Below are positions 1-5,530 of a DNA stretch of 19,072 bases, piece after piece. Numbering within the stretch: position 1 is the first letter of the stretch; the number at the start of each line of letters is the position of its first letter. The translations under genes and the position numbers were made by a program. Below the pieces are notes generated by a model. The model was not told the DNA's origin, ran no database searches, and saw only the letters and a program-made list of their open reading frames with translations. Source of the DNA: a virus (taxonomy: Duplodnaviria > Heunggongvirae > Uroviricota > Caudoviricetes); IMG/VR virus record IMGVR_UViG_2663762908_000007; one strand, written 5' to 3'.

Positions 1-351
1 TTAATCCCACTCAATCCAGTTGTAGACGATACGAAGTGACGGGCGCACAGCGGCAGTCACATCTTCGGTACTAAAGTCGATTGCATCACTGTAGATTTTG
101 CAGTCCAACATTTCAATTGTTGTAGCAGCTTTTGTCACAGCGTTAACCCCGGAAGATTTGGATTCAGGGGTAGCAGCCATCGTGATATCAACATAGTCCT
201 TCGCCGCAATGCGATCCTTGATGAACTGAAGAATATCGCCTTCGATAGTCTCCACGCACTGGACCTGGATTTCCCCAGAGTTTCGAATTGGTCCGTGCTG
301 GTTGAACTTCACACCATTCGGACCATAGTCCTCCACATCCTCGCGAGTCAT
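1..351 (-). CDS. hypothetical protein in the P1-like late/structural block (116 aa from ATG at 351-349; the ORF track starts it at an in-frame GTG at 366-364)
   Basis: Open frame ending with TAA at 3-1. The ATG at 351-349 overlaps the TGA stop of the upstream small ORF (ATGA). Same strand and tight spacing as neighbouring genes. No family recognised. Confidence 0.5.
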   Translation of the reverse strand: MTREDVEDYGPNGVKFNQHGPIRNSGEIQVQCVETIEGDILQFIKDRIAAKDYVDITMAATPESKSSGVNAVTKAATTIEMLDCKIYSDAIDFSTEDVTAAVRPSLRIVYNWIEWD

Positions 352-509
352 TTCAGGGATTTGCACGTACGAACAAGTACACTGATATCTTCATAGCCTG
401 CAAAAGTGAGCTGGAATTCAGAAGATACCAGTCGTTCGCCTTTGGCCGCGTTGGCAGTATAGCGGCCCTTAATAAATTTACGGTTTCCCTTAGTGTTATT
501 GTGCCCCAT
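348..509 (-). CDS. small ORF, 53 aa (MGHNNTKGNRKF...), stop overlaps the start of the downstream ORF
   Basis: ATG at 509-507 preceded by AAGGA with about 6 nt spacing. Its TGA stop (350-348) overlaps the ATG at 351-349, suggesting translational coupling. Below the 60-aa cutoff of the supplied track, found by hand translation. Confidence 0.3.
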   Translation of the reverse strand: MGHNNTKGNRKFIKGRYTANAAKGERLVSSEFQLTFAGYEDISVLVRTCKSLK

Positions 510-520
510 ATAAAATCCTT

Positions 521-985
521 TTACTGGAACGCCCGAACAATATCGGAGCTGTTATATATCGAAGAACCGGTCAACTGGAGGTTGACGGTGTTTTTCAGGA
601 AATGCCCATTGCTGTCCCTGGGCGCATCGAGATCGAAACTTATGTCCTGGATAGCGACATCAATGATGTTGATCCGGCGACCAATGTTTAGCGTCACACG
701 CTCCGGGATTCGACCACCAATACTGGCATCTTTAAGTTCCGGGCTAATCATCGCTGACAATGCGGCGATAGCTCCTGAAACCTCCGTGAATGGGTCAAAC
801 AAAGCGATGAAAGTTACTGGCAGCGTGAAAGTCGGCGGTGTTCCCCCTTCCCAAACCATTAAGCTGTTCCAACGGGCCACCGACGTTGTTTCAGTACCAA
901 CCTGCGCAAAACCACTGAAAGCACCAGCAACAGACCCCATGGACATACCGGTAAACGGCGCTTCCCAATTCTGGGCCATGTTCAT
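521..985 (-). CDS. hypothetical phage-type protein, 154 aa
   Basis: ORF with ATG at 985-983 and a G-rich SD-like sequence about 6-7 nt upstream. Lies in the same minus-strand block downstream of the sheath-like gene. No motif recognised. Confidence 0.5.
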   Translation of the reverse strand: MNMAQNWEAPFTGMSMGSVAGAFSGFAQVGTETTSVARWNSLMVWEGGTPPTFTLPVTFIALFDPFTEVSGAIAALSAMISPELKDASIGGRIPERVTLNIGRRINIIDVAIQDISFDLDAPRDSNGHFLKNTVNLQLTGSSIYNSSDIVRAFQ

Positions 986-1100
986 TGCTGCCCCCTGGCT
1001 GATATATCCGGTAACCTGATACTGAGAGTTCGTTAAAGTAACTTTCAGAAATGGCGATACACCGTCAGCCTGGCTGTAAACCCCATAAGGTATAGGTGCT

Positions 1101-1130
1101 ATTCAAGTTAAAGGCCGGAGTTCTCCGGCC
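1101..1130 (-). terminator. candidate intrinsic terminator/stem-loop after the acidic-protein gene
   Basis: Perfect 8-bp GC-rich inverted repeat GGCCGGAG / CTCCGGCC (1113-1120 and 1123-1130) immediately after the stop at 1138, followed on the minus strand by TTTAACTT. The U-tract is short, so strength is uncertain. Confidence 0.4.
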
Positions 1131-1137
1131 TCCTCCT

Positions 1138-1953
1138 TTAGCCAAGGCGCTTACGGCGCAGTTTCATTGACTTTTTGCGGGCAAGTTTTGCCGCGCCGGT
1201 CTGAGCTTTTCGACGCGCTTTTTTCAGCGCCGATTTTTGAGCCGCAGTCAGACGTTTTTTACTCAGGCGTTTACGGATGAGTTTGATCTCACCGTTACGA
1301 ACAACCTTCTTAAATGCTTCAGTCAGCATTTCATCAGAAGTGCCAGCAACAACAAACGCCGCTTCCAGTTCATCACGGTCGTCGCTATCTAAACCAGCGA
1401 TAGAGGCACCAACATCAGCAGCTGCGTCGTCGTCTTCATCGTCAGCCAGTGCTTCGATCAGGTCATCATCTACACCGCATGCTGCGAGGAAGTCAGCAAC
1501 ATTTGCCCATGCTTCGTTATAGGCATCGTCCTGTTCTTCTGTAACTTCGGAGTCGTCGTCATCAGAGATACCAGCGATAGCCTGAACGAAACCATCAAGG
1601 GAGTCGAAAGTCAGATCACCGCTATCAGCCCAGGCGAAAACGGCGTCGGCCGCATCACTCAACGCATTTTGCATAGCACTTCGATTTGCAGCTTCCAGAA
1701 TCATCTGGTGCGCCTGTTCGACGGTCCATTCTTTACCGTCTTTCCCTTCCAGGATTTGCTCAGGAGCCGGGGCAGATGGAACGTTATCGTTAGTCTGTGC
1801 CGCCGGTTCCGGATTATTATTAATAACCGGATCTGTTGGCGGTTCGGCGCTTGCTCGGGCAGACTCCATCAGCTGCACAGGATCAGAGCTCAAAGCGAAA
1901 CGAGACAGTCCATTCCCCAAAAATGCCCCGGATTGAAAAAAGTTTTTGCTCAT
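1138..1953 (-). CDS. charge-bipolar protein, 271 aa: strongly acidic D/E-rich core with a very basic K/R-rich C-terminal tail of about 50 aa
   Basis: ORF with ATG at 1953-1951 and SD AAGGGA about 7 nt upstream, 9 bp after the stop of the sheath-like gene (operon-like). Composition read directly from the translation (DDDDSEVTEEQDD, DDEDDDAAAD, then KLIRKRLSKKRLTAAQKSALKKARRKAQTGAAKLARKKSMKLRRKRLG). Confidence 0.6.
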   Translation of the reverse strand: MSKNFFQSGAFLGNGLSRFALSSDPVQLMESARASAEPPTDPVINNNPEPAAQTNDNVPSAPAPEQILEGKDGKEWTVEQAHQMILEAANRSAMQNALSDAADAVFAWADSGDLTFDSLDGFVQAIAGISDDDDSEVTEEQDDAYNEAWANVADFLAACGVDDDLIEALADDEDDDAAADVGASIAGLDSDDRDELEAAFVVAGTSDEMLTEAFKKVVRNGEIKLIRKRLSKKRLTAAQKSALKKARRKAQTGAAKLARKKSMKLRRKRLG

Positions 1954-1962
1954 TGTATTCCC

Positions 1963-3552
1963 TTACTTAATAAGCAGCGGTACGCCCTGGATACGACGGG
2001 CTACGCCAGTCGGGCAGCAGGCCCAGACTACTTCCCATTTATCGAATTCCGCCTGCGTAACTTTCAGCACATACGGTTCTGTACCGTCAGCATCAGGATC
2101 ACGAGGAGCCACCAGAGCGCCGGAGGCGACAAAGCGATCTAAAAGTTTGGTCATCCCTTTAGTCAGGCCAGCCGCAGTAATACCGTCCGGGCTATGCTTC
2201 ATCTGTCGGGCTAACTGGACAAAGAAACGGCTGATTGCATTCATCAGGGATGGGACGTGCTGGAAGTGCAGATAGTTATCCTGCGTGCAGCAAGTTAAAG
2301 CATCGTCGATGATCATCTGGCCAGAGGTGCCAACAGATACTTTATTGAGACGGCCCTTGACCATTGCTTCTTCGTCCGGGGTATCTTCCGGATACAGCGG
2401 TTGAATTGACGCACGAGCAATGACGGCACGTTCTTCACCAGCCGGTGAGTAATGCCAACCGCCGACATCAGAGTTTTTCTTGACGCCACGAGCTTTCACC
2501 GCATACGCCACGCCAGACAGACCAAAGACCACACGGGATTGGGTCCATTTGTCTTTGCAGGAGAACGGGTAGTGATAGACAGAACAGCTTACATAATCGG
2601 TACCAAGTAAACCGGTATCCTCAACAGCTGGTAGTGCTTCTGCGTACGTTAATGTCGGTTTGACATCAAAGAAGCCATCAATCAGGCGATCTGCACAGAT
2701 TTTACCTAATGCGGTGATAGCCGCATTGTCATAGCAGCCCAGGCCAAGAACAGCGGTGTACATGTACGGCGCATTGTTCAGAACTTTCACCGCACGCAGG
2801 TACGTAGCGGTTGAGATTTTCGACTGATCGCCGTTGGTACCGCCAGTGAACGCCAACGATTTTTTGTTTGTTACTTTCGCTGTCGAAATCAGCTCTTCAT
2901 TAACAACCGCGCGCAAATATTTAGAACGGGCTTCCAGAGCCGTAGGCAGATAACACAAGCGGCCCATGTCATCTTTCGCTTCTTCCGCCAAAGACACAGT
3001 GTGTGTCTCCAGGGTCGTTACCACGCCGAGCGAAGTCGTCTGGGGCAGTTTTAAGAGGAAGCGTTCATTACCCGCGCTGTCCGCTGTTGCCGTTTCGATG
3101 GTTAACTCACGGGTAGGTGAAATACACGGATCACCATCATCAACGTAGATAGCAAAGGCTTCGCCACTATCAAGTTCAATTTCAGAACCGTATGGCAACG
3201 CACTGTAAGCCGGTTCGCCTGATTCATCGAACATAATAATCGGGAACTTCGCATCATCCGGAACAGCGCGAACAACGTAACCAGACGTTTGCTGAATAGC
3301 TTCGTATACATGGCGAATTGGTTCGAACTGTGAGCCGGAAGACGGCTTCAGCGGTTCGCCGAGAACATCTTCGTAATTGGACTCAGTAACCGCAAGAACA
3401 GTAAACGGCTTGCCACGCGCAAATACGCCAATACCAGCCCACAAGCTGCTATTTAATGCAACACCGGTAGATAACGTCGCATCGGCATTGATCGGGCTAA
3501 CCGCGACGCCGGATGCATTACCTAATGACTGTTGAATTGAATATTGAGACAT
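1963..3552 (-). CDS. phage structural protein, 529 aa, possibly contractile tail sheath (P1 gp22-like)
   Basis: Long ORF with SD AGGGA upstream of the ATG at 3552. The size (about 58 kDa) and a W-x-x-S-P-A-G segment (GGWHYSPAGEE) resemble the conserved W-K-A-P-A-N/G region of myovirus sheath proteins. In P1 the head and tail genes 21-22-23 lie next to par. Assignment is from memory, not a search. Confidence 0.55.
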   Translation of the reverse strand: MSQYSIQQSLGNASGVAVSPINADATLSTGVALNSSLWAGIGVFARGKPFTVLAVTESNYEDVLGEPLKPSSGSQFEPIRHVYEAIQQTSGYVVRAVPDDAKFPIIMFDESGEPAYSALPYGSEIELDSGEAFAIYVDDGDPCISPTRELTIETATADSAGNERFLLKLPQTTSLGVVTTLETHTVSLAEEAKDDMGRLCYLPTALEARSKYLRAVVNEELISTAKVTNKKSLAFTGGTNGDQSKISTATYLRAVKVLNNAPYMYTAVLGLGCYDNAAITALGKICADRLIDGFFDVKPTLTYAEALPAVEDTGLLGTDYVSCSVYHYPFSCKDKWTQSRVVFGLSGVAYAVKARGVKKNSDVGGWHYSPAGEERAVIARASIQPLYPEDTPDEEAMVKGRLNKVSVGTSGQMIIDDALTCCTQDNYLHFQHVPSLMNAISRFFVQLARQMKHSPDGITAAGLTKGMTKLLDRFVASGALVAPRDPDADGTEPYVLKVTQAEFDKWEVVWACCPTGVARRIQGVPLLIK

Positions 3553-3567
3553 AACTTTCCCTGTTAT

Positions 3568-3586
3568 GCGCCCCGCACGGGGGCGC
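3568..3586 (-). other. intergenic GC-rich stem-loop between the 205-aa ORF and the sheath-like gene
   Basis: GCGCCCC-gcacg-GGGGCGC, a 7-bp perfect stem, 26 bp after the stop at 3613 and just upstream of the RBS of the 529-aa gene. No clear U-tract, so it may be a processing or attenuation element rather than a terminator. Confidence 0.35.
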
Positions 3587-3612
3587 TATGTTAAACGGAG
3601 AACTTCCCCTGA

Positions 3613-4230
3613 TTACTCAGAGTCACCGGCATCAATCGTGTCGCCGCTTATGAAGTTAAGCCCGCCTTTTTTGGCCATTGTCAGCGTTACACGAGTGAAG
3701 TAATCAGCGCCGTTGCGTGGGTGCATATCGTTGATAGCCGAACCCCACAGCGTGCTACGGTTGACCAGCGCCGGAGTGGTCGGATGCTGGAACGGGATGG
3801 CCGGGACAGCATCACCAGTCACGAAGCCTGCTTTACCCGGATTTTCATCACGGACGTAGCACAGCACATCCATCGAGCTGAACTGAATGTTCTCAGTCGT
3901 TAAGTTCTTACAAATACCAGCAGGTACTTCGTACACTTTCACGTTACCGAACAGGGTACCGATGTAGTGAACATACGGAGTCTGGATATAGTCTTCGGCT
4001 GGCTGGAAGAAATCCTTCGGCAACTGTTTGAAGAAAGATGCTGCATCAGCACCAGCAAACATCCCCATCGCACCAGAAGATTTAACGCGCTCAATAATGT
4101 CGCGATATACAGTCTGGAATTTGCCACGAATGATGGTTGCCCATACATCAAAGGACTGGTTAACCGGCAGAGCGATGTCAAAGGTGTCGGTCGCAAGAGT
4201 GCGCCAGATCATGATGCGAAGACGCAGCAT
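3613..4230 (-). CDS. 205-aa ORF, probably the C-terminal part of a major head protein (P1 gp23-like); in the same frame as the upstream 360-aa ORF, separated only by a TAA
   Basis: ATG at 4230-4228 has AGGA only 1 nt upstream, a poor RBS. The frame is continuous with ORF 4237-5319 except for the TAA at 4239-4237 (...EYLSH * QD MLRLR...). Confidence 0.5.
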   Translation of the reverse strand: MLRLRIMIWRTLATDTFDIALPVNQSFDVWATIIRGKFQTVYRDIIERVKSSGAMGMFAGADAASFFKQLPKDFFQPAEDYIQTPYVHYIGTLFGNVKVYEVPAGICKNLTTENIQFSSMDVLCYVRDENPGKAGFVTGDAVPAIPFQHPTTPALVNRSTLWGSAINDMHPRNGADYFTRVTLTMAKKGGLNFISGDTIDAGDSE

Positions 4231-4236
4231 ATCCTG

Positions 4237-5319
4237 TTAATGAGACAGGTATTCCTTCAGGGTGCGGAACTGTAGGGAACCCAGGTCTAGACCAAATTCA
4301 CGCTGTGCTTCATACGCCGCCTGTACCGTGTGCTCAGCCGCGATAACGAACTGACTTGGGAACAGGGTGTATTTCTTCATTTCGTGGTTGATCAGCGGGA
4401 TCAGCTCAGGAGCGGCTTCAATATTGATTTCCGTCTCAATTGCGATCTCAGTGCCTTTATCCGGCGCTTTGGAGAACGACAGGGCAATCTGACCAATGTT
4501 GTAGTTCAGAGAGCAGGTAACAGTGATTTGCTCACCAGCAGCATTAGTAAACGAGTGAAGTAGGCTGCCGGAACCGTTATCAACAACAGACTTAATACGG
4601 TTAACGTAGATGTTAGTACGACCTTTTCGGATTGGCACATTCTGGCCTTCGAAGTCTTCCATCTTGAAGGTTGCGGTTTTGCTGGTGCCATCGGAGCTTG
4701 CCACCAGCACATAGCGGCGACGTAACTGGCTGTACACACCGACGGATTGCATGTCCAGAACATCACCAGCAGCATAAGAACCAAAAGAGGAACCTGCCAC
4801 GTTAAAGACTTCATAGATGTCGGACTGGTCACGCGTAACCGGAATGAAGGTACACGCATCAGCGGTAGCTGCCCCCAACTGAACAGGCAGGATCATCGCG
4901 AGGAATAAAGGCAGACGCATAACACCGTCAGAAACGCTCATCATCTCTGCTGCGACGGATTCCAGCATCGCTTTATTAGTGGCATCCATGCTATTGCGGG
5001 TGGACTCAATCAGGCAGTTTTCCAGCGTCTGGTGGCAGGAGGTCAGAATTTCCGAACGCGGCATAGATTTATGTGCTGCGGCGTAGTCAGCCAGTGCACT
5101 TGCCCACGCTGTAGCGATTTGAGCGGTGGCATTATCAGAGATACCCGCAAAAATCGGGTCTTTACGTGCAGCTTCAAGGATAGATGCGGCACGCGCGGCA
5201 TCATCTTTAATGAATTGGTTATCAGTACCGAACTGCGCAGTGCTTGCCCAGCCAAGCACAGCTTTAGAGCGTTTTGCGATATCTGCAATACGATTCTGGT
5301 ATTCGCGTAAGTTACTCAA
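4237..5319 (-). CDS. 360-aa ORF, probably the N-terminal part of a major head protein (P1 gp23-like) with an Ala-rich helical N-terminal region
   Basis: TTG start at 5319-5317 with SD AAGGAAGAG about 5 nt upstream. It is the first gene downstream of parS, where P1 carries gene 23. Combined with ORF 3613-4230 it gives about 568 codons, matching a roughly 62 kDa head precursor. Confidence 0.55.
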   Translation of the reverse strand: MSNLREYQNRIADIAKRSKAVLGWASTAQFGTDNQFIKDDAARAASILEAARKDPIFAGISDNATAQIATAWASALADYAAAHKSMPRSEILTSCHQTLENCLIESTRNSMDATNKAMLESVAAEMMSVSDGVMRLPLFLAMILPVQLGAATADACTFIPVTRDQSDIYEVFNVAGSSFGSYAAGDVLDMQSVGVYSQLRRRYVLVASSDGTSKTATFKMEDFEGQNVPIRKGRTNIYVNRIKSVVDNGSGSLLHSFTNAAGEQITVTCSLNYNIGQIALSFSKAPDKGTEIAIETEINIEAAPELIPLINHEMKKYTLFPSQFVIAAEHTVQAAYEAQREFGLDLGSLQFRTLKEYLSH

Positions 5320-5344
5320 TTTACTCTTCCTTAAACATAAGGCA

Positions 5345-5530
5345 CTTGTGTGAATCCCTTTTCGGAAGAGATTTTATTGAAAGTCACTTGTTGACTTTCT
5401 CGCGAAAAGTAATTTTTTAAATTTTTTGTGCGGGGAAGTGGACGGTGAATGCAGGCGTTAAATCGTGGGAATTTCAGTCTGAAATTCTCCTAAAAAACAC
5501 ATGCAAATCATAATGTTAGCAATGAAATTG
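5345..5530. promoter_or_regulatory. parS: candidate parS centromere (ParB binding site) downstream of parB
   Basis: Located where P1 parS lies, directly after parB. Contains the heptamer palindrome GAATTTCAG-t-CTGAAATTC (5469-5487), further TGAAAT/GTGAAT-like heptamers (5350, 5446, 5523), an AT-rich tract (5411-5428) that could be the IHF site, and a second palindrome GAAAGTCA-cttgt-TGACTTTC (5380-5400). Confidence 0.45.

Follow-up and report, generated by a model that had tools for sequence, protein, structure and literature searches.

This study concerns gene 21, which lies on the minus strand of a 19,072-nucleotide stretch of DNA (the window) from the IMG/VR virus record IMGVR_UViG_2663762908_000007. 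Bases 1-5400 of the window share 98-99% identity with Punavirus P1 and its relatives, and by its sequence the window is a P1-like phage-plasmid. The gene starts with ATG and encodes 271 residues followed by a stop codon; its product, gp21, differs from the P1 reference protein at 10 residues (~96% identity). A sequence-only reading of the same DNA could not assign the protein to any known family, whereas it is the product of P1 gene 21 and matches PHROG 1053 over residues 10-270 (E = 2.8e-99). The function of PHROG 1053 is given as unknown, and a Pfam scan of gp21 and its neighbours returned zero matches. The gene itself is known, but databases label it wrongly or vaguely: the P1 reference record has 'gp21, baseplate or tail tube', while RCS47 and SJ46 have 'tail tube protein Gp21' or 'tail tube protein'. 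In the literature searched, no paper proposes gp21 as a head protein. The results presented here lead us, on balance, to favour a role for gp21 inside the assembling head.

On the minus strand the operon runs in the order 23 (major capsid protein), 22 (sheath), 21, pmgG, bplB and pmgF. The 529-residue product of the open reading frame (ORF) upstream of gene 21 matches PHROG 1036 'tail sheath' (E = 4e-229), only 9 nt separate its stop codon from the gene 21 ATG, and a scan of this gap revealed neither a promoter-like nor a terminator-like site, which agrees with the earlier placement of the gene in one operon with a sheath-like ORF. The sole late promoter in the P1 record is LP23, upstream of gene 23. 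Gene 21 shares its late operon with the capsid gene; the sheath gene intervenes and tail genes come after.

Charge is distributed very unevenly along gp21. Residues 1-60 and 61-110 carry net charges of -3 and -6, residues 111-215 reach -32 (24 D, 10 E and 2 K/R), and residues 216-271 carry +23, with 24 K/R in 56 residues (43%); the pI of the whole protein is 4.5. The sequence-only reading had described just such an acidic, D/E-rich centre and K/R-rich tail, and because the same pattern is found in the medians of 207 family members (-25 in the middle region, +21 in the last 55 residues), the bipolarity is a family trait and not chance. In the AlphaFold2 (AF2) model gp21 is all-helical except for short hairpins. 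Residues 1-60 are disordered, with a predicted local distance difference test score (pLDDT) below 50 over the predicted propeptide (residues 1-30), residues 71-200 score 75-92, mostly 85-92, and residues 208-224 form a flexible linker (pLDDT <50). The basic module at the C-terminus is predicted to consist of a beta-hairpin (VVRNGEIK) and then a helix-turn-helix (237-270). Structure comparison gave no significant fold match for the acidic helical core. A canonical EF-hand loop comprises 12 residues between two helices, D-x-[DN]-x-[DN]-G-x-[ILV]-x-x-x-[DE]; the core of the window's gp21 holds a loop that departs from this pattern, SDDDDSEVTEEQ being substituted at loop positions 1 and 12. Of 148 family representatives, 40 have the canonical loop DxDxDGxLxxxE where the alignment puts this segment, against 0.08 expected. 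When PDB sequences were searched with a profile of the gp21 family, only non-significant EF-hand-like or calcium-binding matches were returned (E ~0.5). The EF-hand-like loop is an ancestral feature of the gp21 family and is degenerate in P1.

A word-index search recovered 82 relatives of gp21, reaching Vibrio and Mailhella, and a full hidden Markov model scan for the family recovered 593 clusters at E <= 0.001. The basic module is the best-conserved part of the family, with the consensus KVVRxGKV...RLSAAQKxALKKARxKA...KRxKSMxxRKxxG, and since it is duplicated in the members P0188, P0211 and P0225 it is an autonomous unit. Some members have an extended N-terminus with 4-7 tandem copies of the putative cleavage motif described below (VLDNA about seven times in P0203, MFES/LFES four times in P0181). 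Pfam and PHROG scans of long or fused members returned PHROG 1053 only; their extra length consists of motif repeats or a second basic module, without a fused functional domain. Among isolated phages, tblastn with gp21 and its Xanthomonas phage Rb1 homologue detected only P1-like phages, D6 and Rb1, a locus search with a P1-led alignment gave near-identical P1 loci only, and a profile search of genome contigs with an alignment of the S-type members described below found nothing. Comparison of the family by hhalign with the P1 prohead protease Pro and with the propeptide of the capsid protein gp23 showed no homology, which rules out gp21 as a diverged copy of either. The gene order capsid, (small ORF), sheath, gp21, PmgG recurs in three distant contigs, 80 divergent IMG/VR loci and Xanthomonas phage Rb1, and the tape-measure gene of the relatives lies 5-6 genes downstream of gp21. 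The small ORF is an additional gene of ~100-240 aa (cluster c11) between capsid and sheath, present in relatives (L003, L005, L006, L088-L167, L172-L174) and absent in P1. Five loci have a DarB-like protein of 2,000-2,300 aa upstream of gp21 in place of the sheath.

The family alignments first revealed a short motif in gp21, consisting of two hydrophobic residues, an acidic residue and then S, A or G, which is present in one to three copies towards the N-terminus and once more directly ahead of the basic module. Maturation of the P1 capsid uses a site of this kind: the prohead protease cleaves gp23 at E120↓S121 (AMLE↓SVAAE; Edman data, PMC9024508). In DarA, a known Pro substrate, the cryo-electron microscopy (cryo-EM) density starts at residue 70 (PMC12810830); the protein (L169:5-1924) has the motif DLLE68↓A69 exactly where the density begins, which pinpoints a cleavage site that had not been mapped. 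Hdf, reported as unprocessed, has no motif. We scored the pattern [ILMVF][ILMVFT][ED][SAG] and controlled for composition with shuffled sequences. Five motifs are present in gp21 against 0.84 expected (P = 0.0006), seven in Pro against 1.06 (a count reached in none of 5,000 shuffles), and three in the N-terminal 125 aa of gp23, the region that is cleaved, against 0.26 (P = 0.0014). There was no enrichment over shuffles in sheath, PmgG, BplB, Hdf, DarB or DdrB. When an E-only form of the motif was counted over the 71 proteins of one P1 genome, the top three were Pro, gp21 and gp23, and all of the tail and baseplate proteins (~20) had 0-1 motifs and no enrichment.

The motif is also fixed in position. 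Family proteins contain on average 2.93 motifs, against 0.82 in shuffles (n = 135), and their positions are bimodal, near the N-terminus (a motif in 101 of the 135 members) and just before the basic module, where the preceding 17 residues hold one in 97 of 135 members against 7.6 expected from shuffles. In gp21 these positions correspond to sites 1 and 5 (Table 1), both of which fall in flexible segments modelled with low confidence. Cleavage is less certain at site 4, which falls within a helix that the model predicts with confidence.

The residue before the cut changes together in the capsid protein and gp21. In the capsid alignment, P1 AMLE↓S is aligned with xLD↓SA in most divergent genomes, and the gp21 homologues of these genomes have xLD↓S/A at both conserved positions. 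Outside this group, the capsid site IFE↓A of L005 is accompanied by ILE↓A, IVE↓A and IFE↓A in gp21, and the sites ILE↓G and IFE↓G of L003 (Mailhella) by IFE↓S, ILE↓D, VLE↓S and VLE↓A. In L006, a Vibrio fluvialis prophage, the capsid protein has LLA↓SV twice and gp21 has ILA↓SM, LFA↓SV and, before the module, LLLS↓ST. The capsid sites MLLS↓A of L173 and MLLS↓S of L174 are each matched by LLS↓S/A at all three positions in gp21. Counted per genome by the dominant residue before the cut (capsid/gp21), there were 28 D/D, three E/E (P1, L005, L003), one A/A and three mismatches, with the S-type genomes L173 and L174 additional to this tally. Among proteins of the S/A-type genomes, only gp21 and the N-terminus of the capsid protein are enriched for the motif specific to the clade; sheath, PmgG, BplB, tape measure and other neighbours are not enriched. 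These changes indicate that the specificity of the protease shifted between clades, with its substrates following. Cutting between Ala and Ser is the classic herpesvirus assemblin site, L/I-x-E is the site of the T4 prohead protease (T4 gp21), and the assemblin fold is common to phage prohead proteases, so that the observed range of E, D, S and A is plausible for one protease family.

Table 1. Coordinates of gene 21, its predicted parts and the neighbouring features in the window (↓, cleavage position)
Feature	Position	Strand	Basis
Gene 21 (gp21)	1138..1953	-	ORF list
Predicted N-terminal propeptide, residues 1-30, ending at QLME↓S	1864..1953	-	AF2 disorder; family-conserved motif position
Site 1, L28-M-E30↓S31, matching capsid AMLE↓S	1861..1872	-	motif; N-terminal motif conserved in family
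Site 2, I67-L-E69↓G70	1744..1755	-	motif
Site 3, I85-L-E87↓A88, kept in the P1-like clade as hLEA	1690..1701	-	motif, alignment
Site 4, L165-I-E167↓A168	1450..1461	-	motif, AF2
Site 5, L210-T-E212↓A213, in flexible linker right before basic module; best-conserved site of family	1315..1326	-	motif, AF2
Acidic all-helical core, residues 78-205	1339..1722	-	AF2 helices 78-111, 116-126, 139-158, 163-172, 175-186, 190-205
Degenerate EF-hand-like loop SDDDDSEVTEEQ between two helices	1531..1566	-	family alignments
Basic module, residues 213-271, 59 aa, net +24, pI ~12	1141..1317	-	AF2, family alignments
Capsid maturation site, M118-L-E120↓S121	4957..4968	-	experimental in P1 (PMC9024508)
Gene 23, major capsid protein, first gene of operon, TAA at codon 361 here	3613..5319	-	ORF list, PHROG
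Gene 22, tail sheath, adjoining gene 21 upstream	1963..3552	-	PHROG match; cryo-EM (PMC10304247)
GC-rich stem-loop (10 bp) in the 35-nt spacer from gene 21 stop codon to pmgG start codon	1110..1133	-	folding
pmgG, tube-linking protein (T4 gp48-like), directly downstream of gene 21, start codon ATA here	521..1102	-	PHROG, P1 record
bplB, real tail tube gene, frameshifted by 1-nt deletion here	1..509	-	cryo-EM, BplB = tube (PMC10304247; bioRxiv 10.1101/2025.07.21.665459)

We consider it probable that gp21 is a substrate of Pro, because its motif is shared with validated Pro sites, is restricted in its enrichment to gp21, Pro and the capsid propeptide, is fixed at two flexible positions and tracks the clade-specific changes of the capsid site. 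Proteases of this type act inside the prohead, and therefore gp21 would be a prohead-internal protein. Two recent structural and proteomic studies of P1 state that no separate scaffold is identified and that the capsid propeptide, with DarA, must serve as one (PMC9024508; PMC12810830). The cryo-EM protein list of the whole virion does not include gp21 (PMC12810830), and in the virion proteome obtained by liquid chromatography with tandem mass spectrometry (LC-MS/MS) ORFs 54, 55, 57 and 58 are present in Table 1 of that study and ORF 56, which is gp21, is missing, with no mention of gp21 in the supplement (PMC9024508). The size of gp21, its helical charged body, its conserved small basic C-terminal domain, its co-expression with the capsid protein and its absence from virions all match the class of scaffold or core proteins. 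We therefore lean towards gp21 as a core or scaffold-type protein inside the prohead of P1-like phages, with T4 gp22 as its closest functional analogue.

We propose the following series of events. Together with capsid and sheath, gp21 would be produced abundantly from their common late operon and would enter the assembling prohead, where its basic C-terminal hairpin and helix-turn-helix would most likely dock on the inner capsid shell. Pro would then cut gp21 at hydrophobic-x-E↓S/A/G, the kind of site found at gp23 E120↓S121 and in DarA. The two conserved cuts would remove an N-terminal propeptide of ~30 residues and sever a 19-kDa polyanionic core (residues 31-212, net -42) from the 59-residue module (net +24), and the acidic body could be cut further at residues 69, 87 and 167. 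The fragments would leave the head or persist as small peptides, which would explain why gp21 is not seen in mature virions.

T4 gp22 is the major prohead core scaffolding protein of T4 and one of the substrates of the T4 prohead protease. It resembles P1 gp21 in size (~270 aa), in its highly acidic helical body, in the multiple protease cuts at hydrophobic-x-Glu and loss from the mature head that we propose for gp21, and in coexisting with a capsid protein from which an N-terminal part is likewise removed at this motif. Unlike T4 gp22, P1 gp21 has a polycationic C-terminal module and, in many family members, an EF-hand-like loop, its gene lies amid tail genes and not beside the protease and portal genes, its cleavage and prohead location are predictions, and the two proteins have no detectable sequence or fold similarity. 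The P22 scaffold gp8 binds coat protein through a basic C-terminal helix-turn-helix, exits as an intact protein to be used again, without the action of a protease. Like P22 gp8, P1 gp21 appears elongated, charged and helical, with a conserved small basic helix-turn-helix at its C-terminus, and is absent from mature virions; it differs in the much stronger basicity of its module, which has 24 K/R in 59 residues and is preceded by a beta-hairpin, and no homology to P22-type scaffolds was found, the profile search of PDB sequences included. The T4 internal proteins IPI-III have a cleavable N-terminal capsid targeting sequence. They and P1 DarA (PMC9024508; PMC12810830) resemble what is predicted for gp21 in having an N-terminal peptide that ends in a protease site and in being delivered to the prohead, and DarA has its motif at LLE68↓A69. 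Both DarA and IPI-III, however, are accessory and persist as large virion proteins, whereas gp21 is a core gene product with several internal sites and is undetected in virions.

Several points weigh against a scaffold or core role. The cleavage of gp21 is a prediction that its motifs suggest; the motif is short and gp21 is rich in D, E, A and L, for which the shuffles control. No sequence or fold similarity of gp21 to any known scaffold was found in Pfam, PDB-profile or structure searches. P1 already has a cleaved capsid propeptide of 120 residues, which others regard as the scaffold (PMC12810830). The call of gene 21 as 'essential' by CRISPR interference is uninformative, given polarity on pmgG and bplB (PMC10695390). 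The classical gene 21 amber mutants behind the label 'baseplate or tail tube' favour a tail factor. A full-text literature search for P1 gene 21 amber data, which the original genetics papers lay outside, found nothing; the complementation group may map to pmgG or bplB, or the amber alleles may be polar on those essential tail genes. Tail-defective P1 mutants show amorphous heads (PMC9024508), and head and tail defects are therefore harder to separate by electron microscopy. The chief argument for the tail is gene order. In nearly all relatives gp21 lies between sheath and PmgG, as the synteny comparison called for by the sequence-only reading shows: PmgG is directly downstream in 47 of 56 scored loci and the sheath directly upstream in 40 of 54, and most of the exceptions are artefacts of crude ORF calling in high-GC DNA.

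Such an order points to a tail role, and it would suit gp21 as a non-virion tail-assembly factor, that is, a chaperone or initiator helper for the sheath, PmgG, tube polymerisation or the tape measure, whose acidic body would shield basic surfaces and whose basic tail would bind the electronegative tube lumen. The order sheath-gp21-PmgG is kept across very divergent relatives, PmgG still follows gp21 in the five loci with the sheath elsewhere, and in the D-type clade the gene after PmgG is PmgB-like. The historical label speaks for the tail as well, absence from virions suits a chaperone (PMC9024508), and the tube lumen is indeed electronegative (PMC10304247). We nevertheless regard a tail factor as unlikely. 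It leaves unexplained why a head-protease motif is common to gp21, Pro and the capsid propeptide, why the motif positions are conserved and why they switch among E, D and S/A jointly with the capsid site, when none of the ~20 P1 tail proteins is enriched for the motif. Moreover, PmgB has already been proposed as the tape-measure chaperone (PMC9024508).

Tail assembly chaperones such as lambda gpG/gpGT and P2 gpE/E+E' are encoded between the tube and tape-measure genes and are extended by a programmed frameshift. P1 gp21 is likewise acidic, helical, non-virion and encoded in a tail operon. It lies outside this canonical position, between sheath and pmgG, it has head-protease motifs, and there is no alternative-frame extension of at least 50 aa on the gene 21 strand, the ORF list containing no minus-strand ORF of at least 50 aa that overlaps the 3' end of gene 21. 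In position and in the lack of a frameshift partner it does not fit the gpG/gpGT type of chaperone.

All of the processing evidence that supports a prohead core protein applies equally to gp21 as a precursor of packaged internal peptides, comparable to the T4 internal proteins and peptides or adenovirus core peptides. Here the N-terminal peptide would target gp21 to the head and Pro would free the 59-residue polycation, which would be kept on the DNA as a counter-ion and perhaps ejected. By calculation from the sequence, trypsin reduces the basic module to fragments of <=7 residues, so that LC-MS/MS could not have detected it, and yields almost no fully tryptic peptides from the processed acidic body; the absence of gp21 from the published proteome therefore says little against the retention of its fragments. 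Disordered internal proteins are invisible to cryo-EM, and DarB, Ulx, DdrA and DdrB are likewise unresolved. The autonomy of the module, duplicated in three members, also fits. Against this, the conserved small residues of the module (G221, Q239, A255, S262) suggest a defined protein contact and not generic DNA coating, the large conserved acidic core is left without a role, and retention in the virion is itself conjectural. We consider such a peptide precursor improbable. In a bolder scheme gp21 would be a two-part electrostatic device: a calcium-binding, DNA-like polyanionic scaffold would fill the prohead, with the polycationic module as its tether to shell or portal; Pro would cut the tether, the incoming DNA would displace the polyanion, and the 59-residue polycation would stay on the genome as a condensing counter-ion and be ejected with the DNA. 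We think this electrostatic scheme quite unlikely.

A virion-carried DNA mimic or anti-restriction protein of the Ocr/ArdA type could be supposed from the extreme acidity of gp21 (net -42 for residues 31-212), from the packaging of anti-restriction Dar proteins by P1 (PMC12810830) and from the motif evidence, which suggests head entry; gp21 shares with Ocr and ArdA that it is strongly polyanionic and phage- or plasmid-encoded. Comparison of the gp21 model gave no match to the fold of Ocr, ArdA or any other mimic, and there is no Pfam match. Unlike such proteins gp21 has an attached polycationic domain and is a core, position-fixed gene of the late structural operon in 593 clusters, whereas genes for anti-defence tend to be variable and accessory. 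Neither the six Dar components defined by genetics nor the proteins detected in virions include gp21 (PMC9024508), and the predicted cuts at 69, 87 and 167 would break up the acidic body. We therefore judge a DNA mimic, the idea that the sequence-only reading favoured, highly improbable; the interpretation given by that reading is supported in part.

The label 'tail tube' was rejected since the AF2 model of gp21 is helical, no tube family of Pfam or PHROG is matched, gp21 is absent from virions and the tube is BplB: two cryo-EM studies build the P1 tube of BplB, with Tub and PmgG below (PMC10304247; bioRxiv 10.1101/2025.07.21.665459), and BplB, not gp21, is the match to the PHROG tube family in the RefSeq annotation. 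A second tape-measure component, considered because Sit looks short for a tail of 2100 Å, was dropped for lack of evidence, and an RNA-binding regulator was dropped because the loose likeness of the basic tail to ribosomal protein S21 is compositional and without a Pfam match.

Other records and P1 genes show related features. Wrong annotations are spreading through P1-like records: in MH422554.1, MH445380.1 and KU760857.1 the label 'mobile element protein' or 'putative baseplate protein' stands for the capsid gene, 'protein inside capsid D' for Sit and 'tail tube protein' for gp21. RefSeq and PHROG 1801 give P1 Pro (L168:11015-12034) as 'tail fiber protein', and only its N-terminal ~160 residues are common to other PHROGs. 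Four of its seven putative self-cleavage motifs lie in the C-terminal half, which may be a nested scaffold-like domain; Mu gpI and lambda gpC, with nested scaffold domains, offer a comparison. The portal gene prt (L168:9313-11022) has QILE↓S at residues 557-560, near the C-terminus, and portal trimming is possible.

Downstream of gene 21 the strong hairpin noted from the sequence was borne out by folding (-28.6 kcal/mol for the whole fold, z = -4.0, none of 200 shuffles equally stable). In a consensus scan the hairpin was not scored as a terminator, owing to its tail, UUUAACUU. The hairpin occupies most of the gene 21-pmgG spacer (window 1098-1142, minus strand). The sequence AAGGAGG, which resembles a Shine-Dalgarno element, is situated directly 5' of the stem and overlaps it in part, and folding would place this region ~7 nt from the pmgG start codon. 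The arrangement recalls T4 gene 38, which has a split ribosome-binding site. Candidate roles for the hairpin are those of an mRNA stabiliser, an attenuator or a translational device.

In this copy gp21 and the sheath gene are intact. Gene 23 has a GAA to TAA (ochre) change at codon 361 (window 4237-4239, minus strand), leaving ORFs of 360 aa and 205 aa, bplB has its 1-nt deletion near codon 49 (~364-365, minus strand), which shifts the frame into ORFs 348..509 and 1..366, and the start codon of pmgG is changed from ATG to ATA (1100-1102, minus strand), the next in-frame ATG giving a product 39 residues shorter. These lesions in three essential genes are private, being absent from 80 other P1-like IMG/VR loci, and therefore the window probably represents a defective prophage-plasmid, unless the lesions are errors of the assembly.

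Phage P1 serves both as a paradigm and as a standard tool, and resistance genes are spread by P1-like phage-plasmids. Should gp21 prove to be a prohead core protein that undergoes processing, it would represent a new sequence family in a known role, with a polycationic module and an EF-hand-like loop, and the model of P1 head assembly would change, including how large and small heads arise. The propagated GenBank label 'tail tube protein' would be corrected and the ~600 sequence clusters of PHROG 1053 would gain a function. Were the DNA-bound polycation of the electrostatic scheme to exist, it would be a packaged peptide in a paradigm phage that trypsin-based proteomics and cryo-EM may both have overlooked. 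The comparison of sites also yields a motif rule for the P1-type prohead protease, hydrophobic-x-E/D/S/A and then S/A/G, and the shift of this specificity between clades helps in the prediction of head-internal proteins among related phages.

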